Of a stretch of DNA of 32,000 nt, positions 8,723-13,756 are shown in pieces; the stretch's first letter is position 1, and each line of letters starts with the position of its first letter. The DNA is from Trichodesmium erythraeum IMS101 (GTDB lineage Bacteria > Cyanobacteriota > Cyanobacteriia > Cyanobacteriales > Microcoleaceae). A program made the position numbers and the translations under genes. Under the pieces are notes generated by a model that was given only the letters and a program-made list of their open reading frames with translations, was not told where the DNA came from and ran no database searches. The DNA is taken from the NCBI RefSeq assembly GCF_000014265.1, contig NC_008312.1, positions 6,990,001 to 7,022,000 of the forward strand, in the 5' to 3' direction.

Positions 8723-10491
8723 TTTTGCAGCTTTCTTGTTTTATTAATCTATAGAAAATCCTTAATTTATTTAAACATTTGAGGTCAGTACAAAGTTTTT
8801 GAGAATATAATTATGTAACTTTTTCTCTTTCAGCGCTATCGCCAGTTTAATTATTCTTAGCTGCACCCCAACTGTAATTTATCAATTAAGTTTTCAAAAA
8901 ATCATTGACTTTATGGTTTTTTTACTCAGAAGTCTTAGTAATTTTATTCATGTTTTTACTTAACGACTCAAGAGCATTTAACCATTCGTGTATATAGTGG
9001 TTTTACTTTTTTTTTGTGTTAATCACCTCCTCATGGTTATATCTACCGATAAGTCTCTTAAAATAATTATTATAACCTCTCTTTAATTTTTTGACTACTA
9101 ATTATCCAACAAATAGGTATATGTTAAATTTTATTCCTATGTAAAAAGATGTAAACTTTCTTTCCAGTCTACTGTCAGATATTTAGCTGAGAGTAACTTG
9201 ACAAAATTTAATACAGTTAAACTTTTTTGTGCTTACTAGTAGTAAGCCAGAAGATTAACAGACTTATCAAGCTTGACTTTAAAATAGTTAAAAAATACTC
9301 TCATTCCTAATGATAAACAAAAAAACAAGTTTTTCTAGATTGATTTTTCATCAACAAAAGCTCATACTTGTTTATCGTCCATGAGATTATTCAAATATTC
9401 TTAATCATTAAGATAGCACATACTAACAGAGTTAAGCCAAGTTAAATCTCTAATTTTATAGCTAGTTAAGCTATAGATACCCCTTTTTTTCAAAAATATT
9501 GACCCTAAAATTGATACAAAAGTTGTTCAAAAAAACCAAAATCTACTTGATTTTGTATTTTGAATTTTCAATATCAAGTATAATAATACCACTGATCAAA
9601 AACTTTTATACCCAGGTTTTTAAACTGGGAAGAAGTTGATATTAGGAAAAGTCAATATTTATAAAATCAAAACTCTAATATCTAATAATGATAAAAAGGT
9701 TATCCTGCCGATGTTACTTAAAATAATTGAAGTATCATCTAAGAATAACCAGACTTTTTTCTAGTTAAGACTTAGGCAGTACCACTAAATATAGTATATT
9801 TTTAGTAATTATTTCAGATATTTTCACTACAATTAACCCCTTTATATAGGTCCTACTAGTATCAGTATAAATAAGTAAGAGGAATGTTTTTAACAATTCA
9901 TTCTTAATCCTAAATCCTACTCCTTACCACTAAATTTTTAATTCTTAAGTGAAGGCCACCAATACTGACAAAAAAAATTGCTTAACCAGCCTGGCCACAA
10001 TAGCTACTGTTATCAGTAGAATCATTGCGAATCACTTGAAAATCCTCAATAGTTTGAAATACATTTTTTGTGAAAGTAAAATTATCGAGAAGTTTCTCCA
10101 CAAAGAATTAATATCAAAATTTCACCATGAGTTTAACCACCTCTAACTTGTACTATAAACCCCTGGATCAACCAATAATTATCATTCTTATTTGCAGAGC
10201 GATCGCCTGCGCCTAATTCATAAACTTATGAGTTATCGAAACAATAGGAGGATCAATAAATTTAAAGTAGCATTTCCTGATCAAACCACATAAATGATCA
10301 ATACTAGGATCATCGACTCTATTCAACTTTTCCAGAGCTATCGGTTAACCGAATTTTAGTAACTCTTCTATCAGGGAGTTTTCATAAATAGAGTCTAGTT
10401 CATAGAGATAAGCAAAAACTTAGTTAACAAACACATCACTGCAAATCAGAATCTAAAATTATGTTATGTTTTGAGATGCTCAAAGCTTTAG

Positions 10492-10526
10492 CCTGTTTCG
10501 GTAAATTATAACTCCACCGAAACAGG
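10492..10526 (-). terminator. 10-bp perfect hairpin about 60 nt downstream of the aroF stop. It may be a terminator but has no U-tract.
   Basis: CCTGTTTCGG, 15-nt loop, CCGAAACAGG. Neither strand has a T-run after the stem. Confidence 0.3.
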
Positions 10527-10588
10527 ATAAGTATTTGTAGCCAAGATTTTAGTATTTGATATAATGGAGAACACCAATAAAGTTAAAT

Positions 10589-11437
10589 TTAAGCCACAGC
10601 TAACTCCTCAAGTTCACAAATATATCGCCCTACTGCAGTAGCAATAGGGCGTAAACTTTGAACTAACTTCACCATATCTTCCAACGACAATGCTTGCTGG
10701 GCATCCGAAACCGACTTCTCCGGTATAGGATGACACTCTATCATCAAACCATCCGCTCCGCAGGCAACCGCAGCTTTTGCCAAGGATGCCACCAACTCCC
10801 TTCTACCAGCAGCATGAGAAGGATCGACAATAACTGGCAAATGAGTCAACTGTTTCAATGCAGCTACCGCACCCAAATCTAAAACATTACGAGTATAACT
10901 ATCAAAACTACGAATACCTCTTTCACATAAGACCACATTAGGGTTGCCATAACTGAGAATATATTCAGCTGCCATTAAAAATTCCTCAATAGTTGCAGCT
11001 AGCCCCCGTTTCAAAATCACAGATTTGCCAGCTTTCCCAACTGCTTTGAGTAACTCAAAGTTTTGCATATTGCGACTACCTATTTGCAGCATATCTGCAT
11101 AAGCAACTACTGACTCTATTTGCGGAATAGACATAACTTCTGTTACTACTGGGATATTGTAGCGTTGGCGAACGGATGCCAAAATTTTTAATCCTTCTAT
11201 TCCCAACCCCTGAAATGAGTAGGGAGAAGTGCGGGGTTTGTAGACACCTCCCCGGAACATTTGCACAGGTGCCATTATTAACTTATTTGCTACTGCTGTC
11301 ATTTGTTCCATACTTTCAACAGTGCACGGACCTCCAATAATTAAAAAATTTGTACCTCCTACCGTTGTCTGTTCAGAAATATTGACAACTGTTTGATCTT
11401 CCGAGTGAGACTTGGATACAAGTTTAGTTTTAGACAT
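10589..11437 (-). CDS. aroF: 3-deoxy-7-phosphoheptulonate (DAHP) synthase, type I-beta
   Basis: 282-aa ORF with GGPCTVES, LQIGSRNMQNFELLK and IVDPSHA motifs. An AAGGAG RBS lies 8 nt upstream of ATG 11437. Confidence 0.9.
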   Translation of the reverse strand: MSKTKLVSKSHSEDQTVVNISEQTTVGGTNFLIIGGPCTVESMEQMTAVANKLIMAPVQMFRGGVYKPRTSPYSFQGLGIEGLKILASVRQRYNIPVVTEVMSIPQIESVVAYADMLQIGSRNMQNFELLKAVGKAGKSVILKRGLAATIEEFLMAAEYILSYGNPNVVLCERGIRSFDSYTRNVLDLGAVAALKQLTHLPVIVDPSHAAGRRELVASLAKAAVACGADGLMIECHPIPEKSVSDAQQALSLEDMVKLVQSLRPIATAVGRYICELEELAVA

Positions 11438-11468
11438 GAGATTTTCTCCTTGATAAATTAAGTAGGGT

Positions 11469-11506
11469 AAAAAATAAAAAACCCGGAACCATTATCAGTT
11501 CCGGGT
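11469..11506 (-). terminator. Rho-independent terminator of the proximal attenuator
   Basis: The minus strand reads ACCCGGAAC, tgataatg, GTTCCGGGT, then TTTTTATTTTTT. The stem is a perfect 9 bp. The structure ends 31 nt before the aroF ATG. Confidence 0.8.
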
Positions 11507-11531
11507 GAAAAGTAAAAGTCAGCATAACAAG

Positions 11532-11594
11532 TTACCCGGAACTATATCGGGGCCAAAAATAAAAACTGTAATACCATTTGTTAACTTGAGTCAT
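11532..11594 (-). CDS. Leader peptide 2: MTQVNKWYYSFYFWPRYSSG* (8 of 20 residues are W/Y/F)
   Basis: Translated by hand codon by codon from ATG 11594-11592 to TAA 11534-11532. The last codons and stop (AGTTCCGGGTaa) are the 5' arm of the antiterminator. Confidence 0.6.
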   Translation of the reverse strand: MTQVNKWYYSFYFWPRYSSG

Positions 11595-11631
11595 GGCTGT
11601 TCGTGTCTTTTTTTGATACGTCGAGTTTGTG

Positions 11632-11662
11632 AACAAAAAACCGCAGTGTTTATGCTGCGGTT
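11632..11662 (-). terminator. Rho-independent terminator of the distal attenuator
   Basis: The minus strand reads AACCGCAG, cataaaca, CTGCGGTT, then TTTTG. Read with a 6-bp CCGCAG/CTGCGG stem, it is followed by T6. Confidence 0.7.
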
Positions 11663-11707
11663 CACTCAGAGATTTATAGAAAAAAACTATATTCACTCCA
11701 AGTGAAC

Positions 11708-11749
11708 CTATTTATACCAAAAATAAAGGTAGAAATTATGGATAAACAT
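11708..11749 (-). CDS. Leader peptide 1: MFIHNFYLYFWYK* (7 of 13 residues are W/Y/F)
   Basis: Translated by hand from ATG 11749-11747 to TAG 11710-11708. The stop codon overlaps GGTTCACT, the 5' arm of an antiterminator. Confidence 0.55.
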   Translation of the reverse strand: MFIHNFYLYFWYK

Positions 11750-12259
11750 CGGCTTTTTATTAGTGTAAAGAAATGTACTAGTTATGGAATCTTTTATGCT
11801 TAGAGCAAGAATACTTCTTTTTATTTATTAATAAACAATCATAGCAGACACTTTAGATAGTGTCAAGCCCCTATAGGATTTTTTTTTCGGGGCTAGATGT
11901 AAAGCCACCTTTAGACATAGGGGTGAAAAAGAATGCAAAGCTTCTCTAAAAGGTTTACTCGGAAAAGCTTATGTAATTTCTGTATTAGTGGTAAACAAAG
12001 AAAGAATTTTTGCACCTTAAATGAATGGATGACAGGGATATATAGTAATCCTATTTTGGTTATAATATTGTGTAGTAATTAGGATTCATAATTAAAAATA
12101 TTTTCAGTTCAAGTCAACTATTTTAATATGATTATAGCCAATTTATGGATTGCTATAACATTATTAATATCATTAAACATGAACTAACTACCAAAAAATT
12201 GAGGTGATTTTGCTGTTAATTATAATTATGAATTATCCTAATTTACAATTTATTCCTGT

Positions 12260-13756
12260 TCAAAATCTGCCTCTTTTATTTATTTTACCTAGTGTCATTT
12301 GTAACGCTCTATTATATTTTTTTTCATTCTCCTTAACTGACTGCCATAAATCAATAATTGGTTCTGGATAATCTACCCCTATTTTGACACCAAATCTATC
12401 TTGTTCAACAGGTAATAATTTCCAAGGTTCATGTACTTTAGCAGGAGGAACTTTTCCTAATTCTGGTAACCAATGTTTAACATATTTTCCTTCTGGGTCG
12501 TAATCTTTTGCTTGTTTAGGAATATTAAAATAGCGAAAACCTCGCCCATCATTTCCTACTCCAGCAGTGTAATTCCAATTTCCCCAATTACTACAAACAT
12601 CATAATCTATTAGTAAAGACTCAAACCATTCAGCTCCCATTTGCCAATTAATTCCTAAATTTTTAGTAAGAAAACTAGCAACATTTTGTCGACCACGATT
12701 TGACATAAAACCTGTAGCTAAAAGTTCACGCATATTAGCATCTACTAGAGGAAATCCTGTTTGACCTGCTTGCCACTTTCTAAATTTTTCCCAATCCTCT
12801 TGCCAAGGAATAGCTATACCTTGTAAACCAGATTTATGAAATATTTTATTCCCATGTTTTTGACAAATAAATCGGAAGTAATCTCGCCATATTAACTCAA
12901 ATATTAACCAATAAGTTGATTGATTCTTGACTCTTTGATATTCATATTCTTTAACTTCTTCATAAATATAACGAGGTGACAAACATCCTAAAGCTAACCA
13001 AGGGGAAAATTTAGAAGAATAATTGGCACCTAGCATTCCATTTCTGGTTTCCTTATAAACTTTTAAATAGTCTTGCTGCCAAAAGTAGTTTTTTACTCTT
13101 TCCTTAGCGGCAGTTTCTCCACCTTTAAATTCTAAAACTCCCTGTGAATTTAGTGGCGGTTTTTCTAGATTTAAATCAGATAATGTAGGTAATTCTCCCA
13201 CATCAATTTTTGGTAAGGATGATAATTTTTTAGGGATTGAGAATGTAGGGTTTACACTAGAATTTTTCTCTACATCTTTACGAAAAGTAGTAAATAATTC
13301 TGGTAATTGTTTTATTTCAAAAGGTAAATCATCTGGATGGTAAAGTGTATGACCCCAAAATGATTTTAACCTAACTCCAATTTGTTTTAGTGCTTGATGA
13401 ACTAATCTTTCTACTTTAACTTCGAGCTCAGTAACTTCTTGATGAAAAAATACTGATTTAGCAGATAATTGTTGAGCTAGTCTAGGAATTACTATTTCTG
13501 GTTTATCTTGAAAAATAACTAAATTACTACCTAATTTTTGTAGGTTGTTACGCAAATCAGCAATACTTTCTAGTAAAAACTTTGCTCTAAATACACCTGT
13601 TTTAGGAAAACCAAAATCTGTTTGACTAAATTGCCTTGGATCTAAACAATAAATCGGTATAATTTGAGCATTAACTTTGAGTGCTTTATATAGTGGTTCA
13701 TGGTCATGGATGCGTAGGTCATTACGATACCATAATATAATTACGTTTTGACTCAT
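12260..13756 (-). CDS. DASH-family cryptochrome / photolyase-family flavoprotein
   Basis: 498-aa ORF. The N-terminus ILWYRNDLRIHDHEPLYKAL..YCLDPRQF..FGFPKTG matches the cry-DASH pattern, and the C-terminal FAD-binding part contains WRDYF, SNRGRQNVASFL and DYDVCSNWGNWNY. Confidence 0.9.
   Translation of the reverse strand: MSQNVIILWYRNDLRIHDHEPLYKALKVNAQIIPIYCLDPRQFSQTDFGFPKTGVFRAKFLLESIADLRNNLQKLGSNLVIFQDKPEIVIPRLAQQLSAKSVFFHQEVTELEVKVERLVHQALKQIGVRLKSFWGHTLYHPDDLPFEIKQLPELFTTFRKDVEKNSSVNPTFSIPKKLSSLPKIDVGELPTLSDLNLEKPPLNSQGVLEFKGGETAAKERVKNYFWQQDYLKVYKETRNGMLGANYSSKFSPWLALGCLSPRYIYEEVKEYEYQRVKNQSTYWLIFELIWRDYFRFICQKHGNKIFHKSGLQGIAIPWQEDWEKFRKWQAGQTGFPLVDANMRELLATGFMSNRGRQNVASFLTKNLGINWQMGAEWFESLLIDYDVCSNWGNWNYTAGVGNDGRGFRYFNIPKQAKDYDPEGKYVKHWLPELGKVPPAKVHEPWKLLPVEQDRFGVKIGVDYPEPIIDLWQSVKENEKKYNRALQMTLGKINKRGRF

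Follow-up and report, generated by a model that had tools for sequence, protein, structure and literature searches.

What governs expression of the gene for 3-deoxy-7-phosphoheptulonate (DAHP) synthase in Trichodesmium erythraeum IMS101, and why might control at the level of expression be needed there at all? The locus lies in NC_008312.1, from which we analysed positions 6,990,001 to 7,022,000, a stretch of 32,000 nucleotides that we call the window and in whose own numbering all positions below are given. We propose, with a probability of about 80%, that the leader of this gene carries two ribosome-mediated (leader-peptide) transcription attenuators in series, each responding to codons for Trp, Tyr and Phe; the unit nearer the gene is our main subject. 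The gene itself (11437..10589, minus strand) encodes a type I-beta DAHP synthase of 282 amino acids (NF006421, TIGR01361), which matches NF006421 with 409 bits over positions 68-335 of the 338 in the profile, aligns over its full length with the enzymes of A. pernix (1VS1) and P. furiosus (1ZCO), and aligns with residues 69-334 of the T. maritima enzyme (1RZM). Because the alignment covers only the catalytic barrel of both the profile and the T. maritima enzyme, we read the protein as a bare catalytic barrel that lacks the N-terminal regulatory (allosteric) domain. Bare barrels of the type I-beta subclass are described as unadorned and unregulated (PMC6435475), and a bare, unregulated barrel gives a rationale for control at the level of expression.

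The gene-proximal unit is made up of the following features, from the leader open reading frame (ORF) to the Shine-Dalgarno sequence of the gene, with one further helix that appears in the minimum free energy (MFE) fold.

11594..11532, minus strand: proximal leader ORF, MTQVNKWYYSFYFWPRYSSG followed by the stop; 20 codons, ATG at 11594..11592 and TAA at 11534..11532 (ORF list and reading of the sequence)
11576..11553, minus strand: regulatory codon run W-Y-Y-S-F-Y-F-W, codons 7-14 of the proximal leader
11552..11544, minus strand: spacer codons P-R-Y, the three codons between the aromatic run and segment 1
11543..11534, minus strand: segment 1, AGTTCCGGGT, the 5' arm of the proximal antiterminator; its final base is the T of the stop codon
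11506..11497, minus strand: segment 2, ACCCGGAACT, which pairs with segment 1 in the antiterminator and with segment 3 in the terminator
11490..11481, minus strand: segment 3, GGTTCCGGGT, that is (G)GTTCCGGGT, the 3' arm of the proximal intrinsic terminator T2
11480..11469, minus strand: T-run TTTTTATTTTTT of terminator T2, directly after segment 3
11451..11446, minus strand: Shine-Dalgarno sequence AAGGAG of the DAHP synthase gene, outside both hairpins
11599..11582 with 11533..11520, minus strand: candidate helix P0, which joins the start-codon region of the proximal leader to the stretch after its stop codon in the MFE fold

Seven of the eight codons from 7 to 14 are aromatic, and Tyr17 is an eighth aromatic residue. 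An initial annotation of this DNA had described the same 20-codon ORF, with eight Trp, Tyr or Phe residues and seven of them in the W-Y-Y-S-F-Y-F-W run, and had placed the three segments, the T-run, the AAGGAG and the gene's ATG; on the minus strand and in the ORF list its coordinates and letters are all correct, and the elements of the switch lie where it put them. The proximal terminator hairpin (11506..11481, followed by the T-run) stands 44 nt upstream of the DAHP synthase gene, was recovered independently as a hairpin of 11 pairs by a terminator scan, and has a folding energy of -17.1 kcal/mol on its own. When the proximal unit was folded with one helix or the other enforced, a comparison that the initial annotation had proposed, the energies were -16.0 kcal/mol for 1:2 and -19.8 kcal/mol for 2:3. 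The two helices are viable alternatives of comparable energy, and 1:2 is kinetically favoured because it is transcribed before 2:3.

Could such an arrangement have arisen by accident? Among the 334 ATG-initiated ORFs of 10-40 amino acids in the window, only the leader ORFs of the two units reach at least six aromatic residues in any eight, and a first-order Markov model leads one to expect 0.01 ORFs per 32 kb with at least seven aromatic residues in eight. When the upstream 114 nt were dinucleotide-shuffled 20,000 times, a perfect complement of at least 9 nt to the 5' arm of the terminator appeared in 5 of the shuffles. The whole 331-nt leader folds at -81.3 kcal/mol (z = -4.4), and none of 100 shuffles was as stable. 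A chance ORF in AT-rich DNA is ruled out by the ORF census together with the shuffles.

To compare leaders we drew on 80 loci with relatives of the enzyme, taken from one genome per species, and on further loci from close relatives; this set held no DAHP synthase from Synechocystis 6803, S. elongatus or Anabaena 7120. In about 50 loci DAHP synthase is preceded by an ORF of 16-26 codons that begins with ATG and differs in length by whole codons, with ORF, frame, start and stop all conserved upstream of orthologous DAHP synthases. The proximal peptide follows the consensus M..W[YF]Y[GS]FYFW-P-x-x-S-S-G, then stop. We anchored 35 distinct proximal leaders at the stop codon. Positions -14 to -7 are aromatic in nearly all 35 leaders, save for a Gly or Ser at -11; at these regulatory positions Trp, Tyr and Phe replace one another, and the codons TAT and TAC, or TTT and TTC, are swapped synonymously. 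Position -6 is mostly Pro. Positions -5 and -4 accept 9 and 13 different residues, and the number of spacer codons is always three. Positions -3 to -1 are fixed at the level of nucleotides, as AGT TCC GGG, because those codons are segment 1. In essentially all sequences segment 1 begins 12 nt after the first base of the last Trp codon; about 12 nt is also roughly the distance that a ribosome protects 3' of its A-site codon. The codon pattern points to a regulatory leader and not to a functional peptide: a functional small protein is ruled out by the pattern of substitution, with its interchange of Trp, Tyr and Phe and its hypervariable spacer.

These same leaders bear on an alternative in which termination would depend on translation of the ORF and the signal would be something other than tRNA charging, either a free amino acid or other ligand sensed by a TnaC-like arrest peptide (FYFW-P..SG, then stop) or the global rate of translation. 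Its appeal comes from the Pro that follows the last Trp in 26 of the 35 leaders, from a last residue that is always Gly, and from the position of the stop codon, which lies within the switch in tnaC-type systems as it does here. An arrest peptide has to fit the exit tunnel, however, and such a peptide would not be expected to vary in the way these do, with free interchange of Trp, Tyr and Phe and a hypervariable stretch separating the run from the C-terminus. RNA pairing accounts for the conservation of the C-terminal codons, and the distal and proximal peptides are alike only in their aromatic content. We regard a signal of this kind as improbable.

Attenuation through stalling at aromatic codons calls on two mutually exclusive helices, and both are conserved. 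Helices were counted in an alignment of 36 diverse proximal units or 42 distal units. The proximal terminator, 2:3, is paired in 93.9% of cells and shows compensatory change at 4 pairs (29 cells), values reached by 0 of 500 shuffles, and appears in the RNAalifold consensus; AU and GC are exchanged at its base in 14 sequences, and CG and UA at its top in 11. For the proximal antiterminator, 1:2, pairing holds in 91.7% of cells, compared with 15-57% when the arms are slid against each other, and 3 pairs show compensatory change, including one (columns 34/80) at which 4 sequences exchange UA and CG. Helix 1:2 ends in a pair to which the stop codon contributes its U, a base that cannot change; opposite it, column 74 is only ever A or G, both of which pair with U, and this column in turn covaries with column 101, with which it pairs in the terminator. 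The alternation of terminator and antiterminator that the initial annotation had deduced from a single sequence is in this way kept across 36 diverse ones, and the alignment of upstream regions that it had recommended turned up what it had anticipated, a conserved short aromatic ORF with compensatory changes in segments 1-3.

That annotation had described a single attenuator before the gene. The unit that it recognised stands, as the second of two attenuators in tandem, so that its account covered half of the element. The other half is a distal leader ORF and switch at 11749..11632 (minus strand), whose ATG lies 155 nt upstream of the proximal ORF, with a promoter-like site farther upstream.

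11866..11838, minus strand: promoter-like TTGACA-17-TATGAT with a TG extension, 11/12 matches
11749..11708, minus strand: distal leader ORF, MFIHNFYLYFWYK followed by the stop TAG (11710..11708); six of the eight codons from 6 to 13 are aromatic
11708..11696, minus strand: distal segment 1', GGTTCACTTGGAG, the 5' arm of the distal antiterminator
11671..11659, minus strand: distal segment 2', CTCTGAGTGAACC, the 3' arm of the distal antiterminator, overlapping the 5' arm of T1 by 5 nt
11663..11655, then a loop, then 11646..11638, minus strand: distal intrinsic terminator T1, arms GAACCGCAG and CTGCGGTTT, with a T-run to 11635 (terminator scan)

The whole leader transcript probably starts from the promoter-like site, at a position that we infer to lie near 11831; the -35 element of the site, CTTGACAC, is invariant across Trichodesmium, Dapis and Okeania. 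In the fold the distal 1':2' helix has 13 bp, and the antiterminator is the MFE structure of the distal unit. The distal peptide follows the consensus M..S-Y-F-Y-F-W..V-[HR]-[LP]-[EG], then stop. Its antiterminator is paired in 89% of cells, with 9 of 13 pairs and 41 cells showing compensatory change, and 0 of 500 shuffles equal it on any measure; the helix reads GTTCACCTGG/CCAGGTGAAC in most lineages, for instance, and GTTCGCCCGG/CCGGGCGAAC in Microcoleus. The distal terminator is paired in 97.4% of cells, with compensatory change at 4 pairs. Because both units share one architecture and the distal switch covaries strongly, the distal unit lends support to the reading of the proximal one. We also note that in the MFE fold of the full leader an A-rich stretch before the distal start (11760..11750) pairs over 11 bp with the CGG and U-tract of T1 (11642..11632), which may be incidental A/U complementarity.

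How would such a leader work? Each unit has a short ORF with a mixed run of Trp, Tyr and Phe codons, then three spacer codons, and its last codons and stop would serve as segment 1. When charged tRNA-Trp, tRNA-Tyr and tRNA-Phe are plentiful, the ribosome would arrive at the stop codon and cover all of segment 1; with segment 1 covered, 2:3 would form, and the GC-rich hairpin and its U-tract would free RNA polymerase before it reached the gene. A shortage of any one of these charged tRNAs would stall the ribosome within the run, its leading edge just short of segment 1, and the free segment 1 would capture segment 2 as soon as this was transcribed, so that no terminator formed and the polymerase read on. 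With two units in series the probabilities of read-through would multiply, giving a steep, low-leak response to the supply of aromatic aminoacyl-tRNA. Since the Shine-Dalgarno sequence of the gene lies outside both hairpins, control should be transcriptional. This is the logic of trpL and pheL, which the initial annotation had suggested, and the conserved ORF, the aromatic class of its codons, the fixed spacer and the alternative pairings all speak for it at the level of sequence.

Several observations weigh against attenuation of this kind. The proximal antiterminator covaries only modestly: the CCGGG at its core is invariant, a 7-bp core is almost so, and 99 of 500 shuffles equal its number of covarying pairs. 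No convincing anti-antiterminator or pause hairpin was found, P0 being the candidate examined; P0 is paired in 74% of cells on 25 sequences, with almost no compensatory change, and could be an anti-antiterminator, a means of sequestering the start codon or a limit on re-initiation. In the MFE fold the Trp-Pro codons also pair with segment 1 over 4 bp, a pairing that is not conserved outside the lineages that use CCC for this Pro. Without an anti-antiterminator an untranslated leader would default to read-through, unlike those of trp and his. The distal leader has a premature stop in the lineage of the window: only here and in a TARA contig (L081) does it read AAA TAG, as against AGA GAG in other Trichodesmium, Dapis and Okeania, and the TAG ends the ORF 5 codons before the ancestral stop, TGA at 11695..11693. 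This TAG sits directly before segment 1' and not at its 3' end; a ribosome terminating there would still cover the 5' half of segment 1'. The near-identical leader of the same contig (L081:1040-1510) has TTG (Leu) in place of the TGG of proximal Trp14, which is either a population variant or an assembly error. To our knowledge, tight coupling of transcription and translation has not been established for cyanobacteria. Finally, neither leader ATG, proximal or distal, is preceded by a Shine-Dalgarno sequence, as is common in cyanobacteria. A conserved AAAACAGC precedes the proximal leader ATG.

The lack of Shine-Dalgarno sequences before the leader ATGs would also suit a reading in which the ORFs are untranslated, or irrelevant to termination, and the hairpins are constitutive, leaky terminators of small leader RNAs (an "actuaton", possibly acting in trans). 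Units that combine a small RNA with read-through are described in cyanobacteria (PMC6596454), and small RNAs derived from attenuators are reported to act in trans in rhizobia (PMC6614838). Leaky termination alone leaves a good deal unexplained: the conserved ATG, frame and stop; an aromatic class kept through synonymous changes; a spacer fixed at three codons; a stop codon on the last base pair of the antiterminator; and the conserved alternative pairing itself. We hold it to be quite improbable as the whole account, and the terminated RNAs could have a role in trans in addition to attenuation.

A terminator and an antiterminator that exclude each other are common to all mechanisms in which a factor acting in trans sets the switch, whether as a metabolite riboswitch, a T-box bound by uncharged tRNA or a TRAP- or PyrR-like protein. 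A cmscan of 10000..13000 against Rfam 15 at E <= 10 gave only sub-threshold chance matches, the best over the element being to anti-hemB (21 bits; gathering threshold 49.5) and L20_leader (17.7 bits; gathering threshold 58.7); even at this cut-off there was no match to T-box or to any riboswitch, and none to the curated leader families (Trp_leader, His_leader, Leu_leader, Thr_leader, leu/phe leader and others). The leader has neither a specifier nor a T-box sequence and lacks any array of (G/U)AG triplets, and conservation outside the ORF and the three segments is so poor that there is no room for an aptamer. Riboswitch, T-box and TRAP-like control were rejected on these two grounds, the lack of motifs and of conserved sequence beyond the ORF and segments, and a factor in trans strikes us as extremely improbable.

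Is the pair of attenuators a peculiarity of Trichodesmium? Covariance models built from the alignments were run on the window and 82 loci, with cut-offs of more than 45 bits for the proximal unit and more than 50 bits for the distal unit. The window has both; of the 82 other loci, 48 have the proximal unit and 67 the distal one, and all matches lie on the coding strand immediately 5' of DAHP synthase. The initial annotation had raised the prospect that the small ORF or its complementary segments might be missing from orthologous leaders; the 48 loci with a proximal unit answer that doubt. Carriers include Trichodesmium, Okeania, Dapis, Lyngbya, Microcoleus, Kamptonema, Aerosakkonema, Stenomitos, Leptolyngbya, Leptothoe, Leptothermofonsia and Synechococcales, and distal-type units extend to Melainabacteria, Obscuribacter among them, where the contigs reach 7 Mb. 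Among the 82 loci searched, those from Acidobacteriota, archaea, Thermoanaerobacterium and Actinomycetota gave no match to either model. On this distribution we would tentatively place the tandem Trp/Tyr/Phe attenuator in the ancestor of Cyanobacteriota, with vertical inheritance since before the split from Vampirovibrionia (Melainabacteria, Obscuribacterales), at slightly less than even odds.

The association with DAHP synthase was also approached without reference to the gene. We scanned metagenome contigs for a degenerate form of the proximal switch, CCGGGTAA N22-42 CCCGG N10-20 CCGGGYTTTT, which returned 80 loci, 27 of them with an aromatic-rich ORF ending in CCGGGTAA. A DAHP synthase homologue follows on the same strand 36-190 nt downstream in 26 of these 27, and the remaining contig stops 105 nt past the motif, which makes 26 of 26 evaluable cases; the other 53 pattern loci have neither an aromatic ORF nor a DAHP synthase. 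Because this motif-seeded scan gave 26 of 26, the aromatic leader is specific to the DAHP synthase gene.

Some loci depart from the layout seen in Trichodesmium. One from Melainabacteria (L060) has two distal-type units in tandem (2208-2313 and 2363-2467) and not a distal followed by a proximal one, and four loci of Obscuribacterales type (L046, L048, L049, L053) have a long second leader ending in SYYWYFFFFAGGTPGQV and a stop. In a metagenome-assembled genome (MAG) of Actinomycetota (L072:2310-2480), a DAHP synthase 59% identical to the one studied here is preceded by an unrelated aromatic leader, MQRNFTYNSYWYWFSPSQKASPYGVVRAIS and a stop, then by a strong terminator, AACCGCCAGCC...GGCTGGCGGTTTTGTTTTTT, which by its sequence looks like an independent aromatic attenuator on the same type of gene.

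The gene and its surroundings can be described more briefly. The 282-amino-acid protein has a counterpart of 100% identity in "Trichodesmium sp. ALOHA_ZT_67", shares about 90% identity with those of other Trichodesmium, and is present on TARA Oceans contigs. These matches and the G+C content mark the window as DNA of a marine Trichodesmium, a genus of Oscillatoriales and not of Nostocales, the order across which the initial annotation had suggested comparing aroF leaders. Several orthologues of 284-291 amino acids (P0044, P0050, P0052-P0055, P0058) bear the public name "bifunctional DAHP synthase/chorismate mutase", probably an over-annotation, because their length and alignment leave no chorismate-mutase domain. 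About 65 nt after the stop codon of the gene, at 10526..10492 (minus strand), lies an 11-bp hairpin, CCTGTTTCGGT...ACCGAAACAGG, with no T-run, which is probably the 3' end of a monocistronic mRNA; the terminator scan also gave a terminator-like match at 10651..10626, within the end of the coding region. Upstream of the leader is a DASH cryptochrome gene (12260..13756, minus strand). The window is 33% G+C and has 19 ORFs of at least 100 amino acids in its 32 kb, a low coding density of the kind typical of Trichodesmium.

If the element works as proposed, what would follow? The conserved attenuator pair would be the first leader-peptide system for the phylum, and would imply that ribosomes closely trail RNA polymerase in cyanobacteria and Melainabacteria. 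It would mark a control point, at the level of expression, for the entry of carbon into the shikimate pathway, in lineages whose DAHP synthase has no allosteric domain. If the ancestral reading is true, the pair would be among the oldest traceable ribosome-mediated attenuators and would amount to direct genomic evidence for tight transcription-translation coupling in Cyanobacteriota. The element bears on the amino-acid economy of the ecologically dominant Trichodesmium and Microcoleus, and on the engineering of cyanobacteria for aromatics, where deletion of the leader should deregulate the pathway.

We found little in print with which to compare it inside the phylum. A survey of 2016 states that there are no reliable data for attenuation in cyanobacteria (PMC4833913); another reports that fewer cis-regulatory RNAs are known from cyanobacteria than from any other lineage it covered and that amino-acid attenuators are mainly gamma-proteobacterial (PMC3766115); and a major review of cyanobacterial regulatory RNAs leaves leader peptides unmentioned (PMC6596454). 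The attenuator survey of Naville & Gautheret mentions neither cyanobacteria nor aroF, and a Synechocystis Ribo-seq preprint proposes only Sml0012, upstream of aroQ. The belief that the element was undescribed in cyanobacteria, voiced in the initial annotation, agrees with our search of the open-access literature, which turned up no description of it and no relevant paper with GFYFW, SFYFW, YFYFW or FYFWP, although absence cannot be proved in this way.

Outside the phylum the closest parallels in logic are the trpL and pheL leaders of E. coli, which likewise have a leader ORF with codons for the product of the pathway, a terminator that shares an arm with an antiterminator, and an antiterminator 5' arm that is masked by a ribosome at the stop and free when the ribosome is stalled; segments 1, 2 and 3 of the window correspond to trp segments 2, 3 and 4. 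There is no relationship to trpL or pheL in sequence or in Rfam, and the trp 1:2 protector/pause hairpin has no demonstrated counterpart in the window, which differs further in its mix of codons for three amino acids, its two units in series, its enzyme of the common pathway and its phylum. Multivalent attenuators are known from the E. coli ilvGMEDA leader, with Ile, Leu and Val codons, and the thr leader, with Thr and Ile codons. There, too, codons for the end products of a shared pathway are mixed, and a shortage of any one of these amino acids lifts termination; these leaders differ from the window in amino acids, sequence and phylum, and ilvGMEDA and thr have single units within multi-hairpin leaders. 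Conditional terminators in series, for combined or sharpened control, are seen in the Salmonella mgtCBR leader, whose mgtM and mgtP units sense ATP and proline/osmolarity, and in tandem T-boxes and riboswitches. The mgtCBR units sense different signals, whereas both units of the window carry runs of aromatic codons.

Two systems stand, like this one, before a DAHP synthase gene. In C. glutamicum the aroR leader upstream of the aroF operon contains Phe-Tyr-Phe, and stalling under limitation for Phe, and not Tyr, is reported to enhance read-through (Neshat et al. 2014, summarised in PMC11802643). As described there, aroR shares with the window an aromatic leader peptide upstream of a DAHP synthase gene, and differs in being actinobacterial and in consisting of one unit whose three aromatic residues include no Trp, compared with 6-7 aromatic codons per unit, Trp included, in two units here. 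In Acholeplasma the candidate upstream ORF uORFC-13-1 precedes aroF with Phe codons and an intrinsic terminator, and attenuation has been proposed (PMC8632094). Like the element of the window it is known from comparative analysis only; unlike it, uORFC-13-1 is confined to Acholeplasma and environmental sequences, its U-run codes for at least one Phe, and it has no tandem arrangement (PMC8632094). Set beside all of these, what appears to be new in the Trichodesmium leader is the tandem layout, the mix of three amino acids, a phylum from which the mechanism had not been reported and an apparent great age. The mechanism itself is textbook, and the advance would lie in distribution, architecture and evolutionary depth, not in principle.

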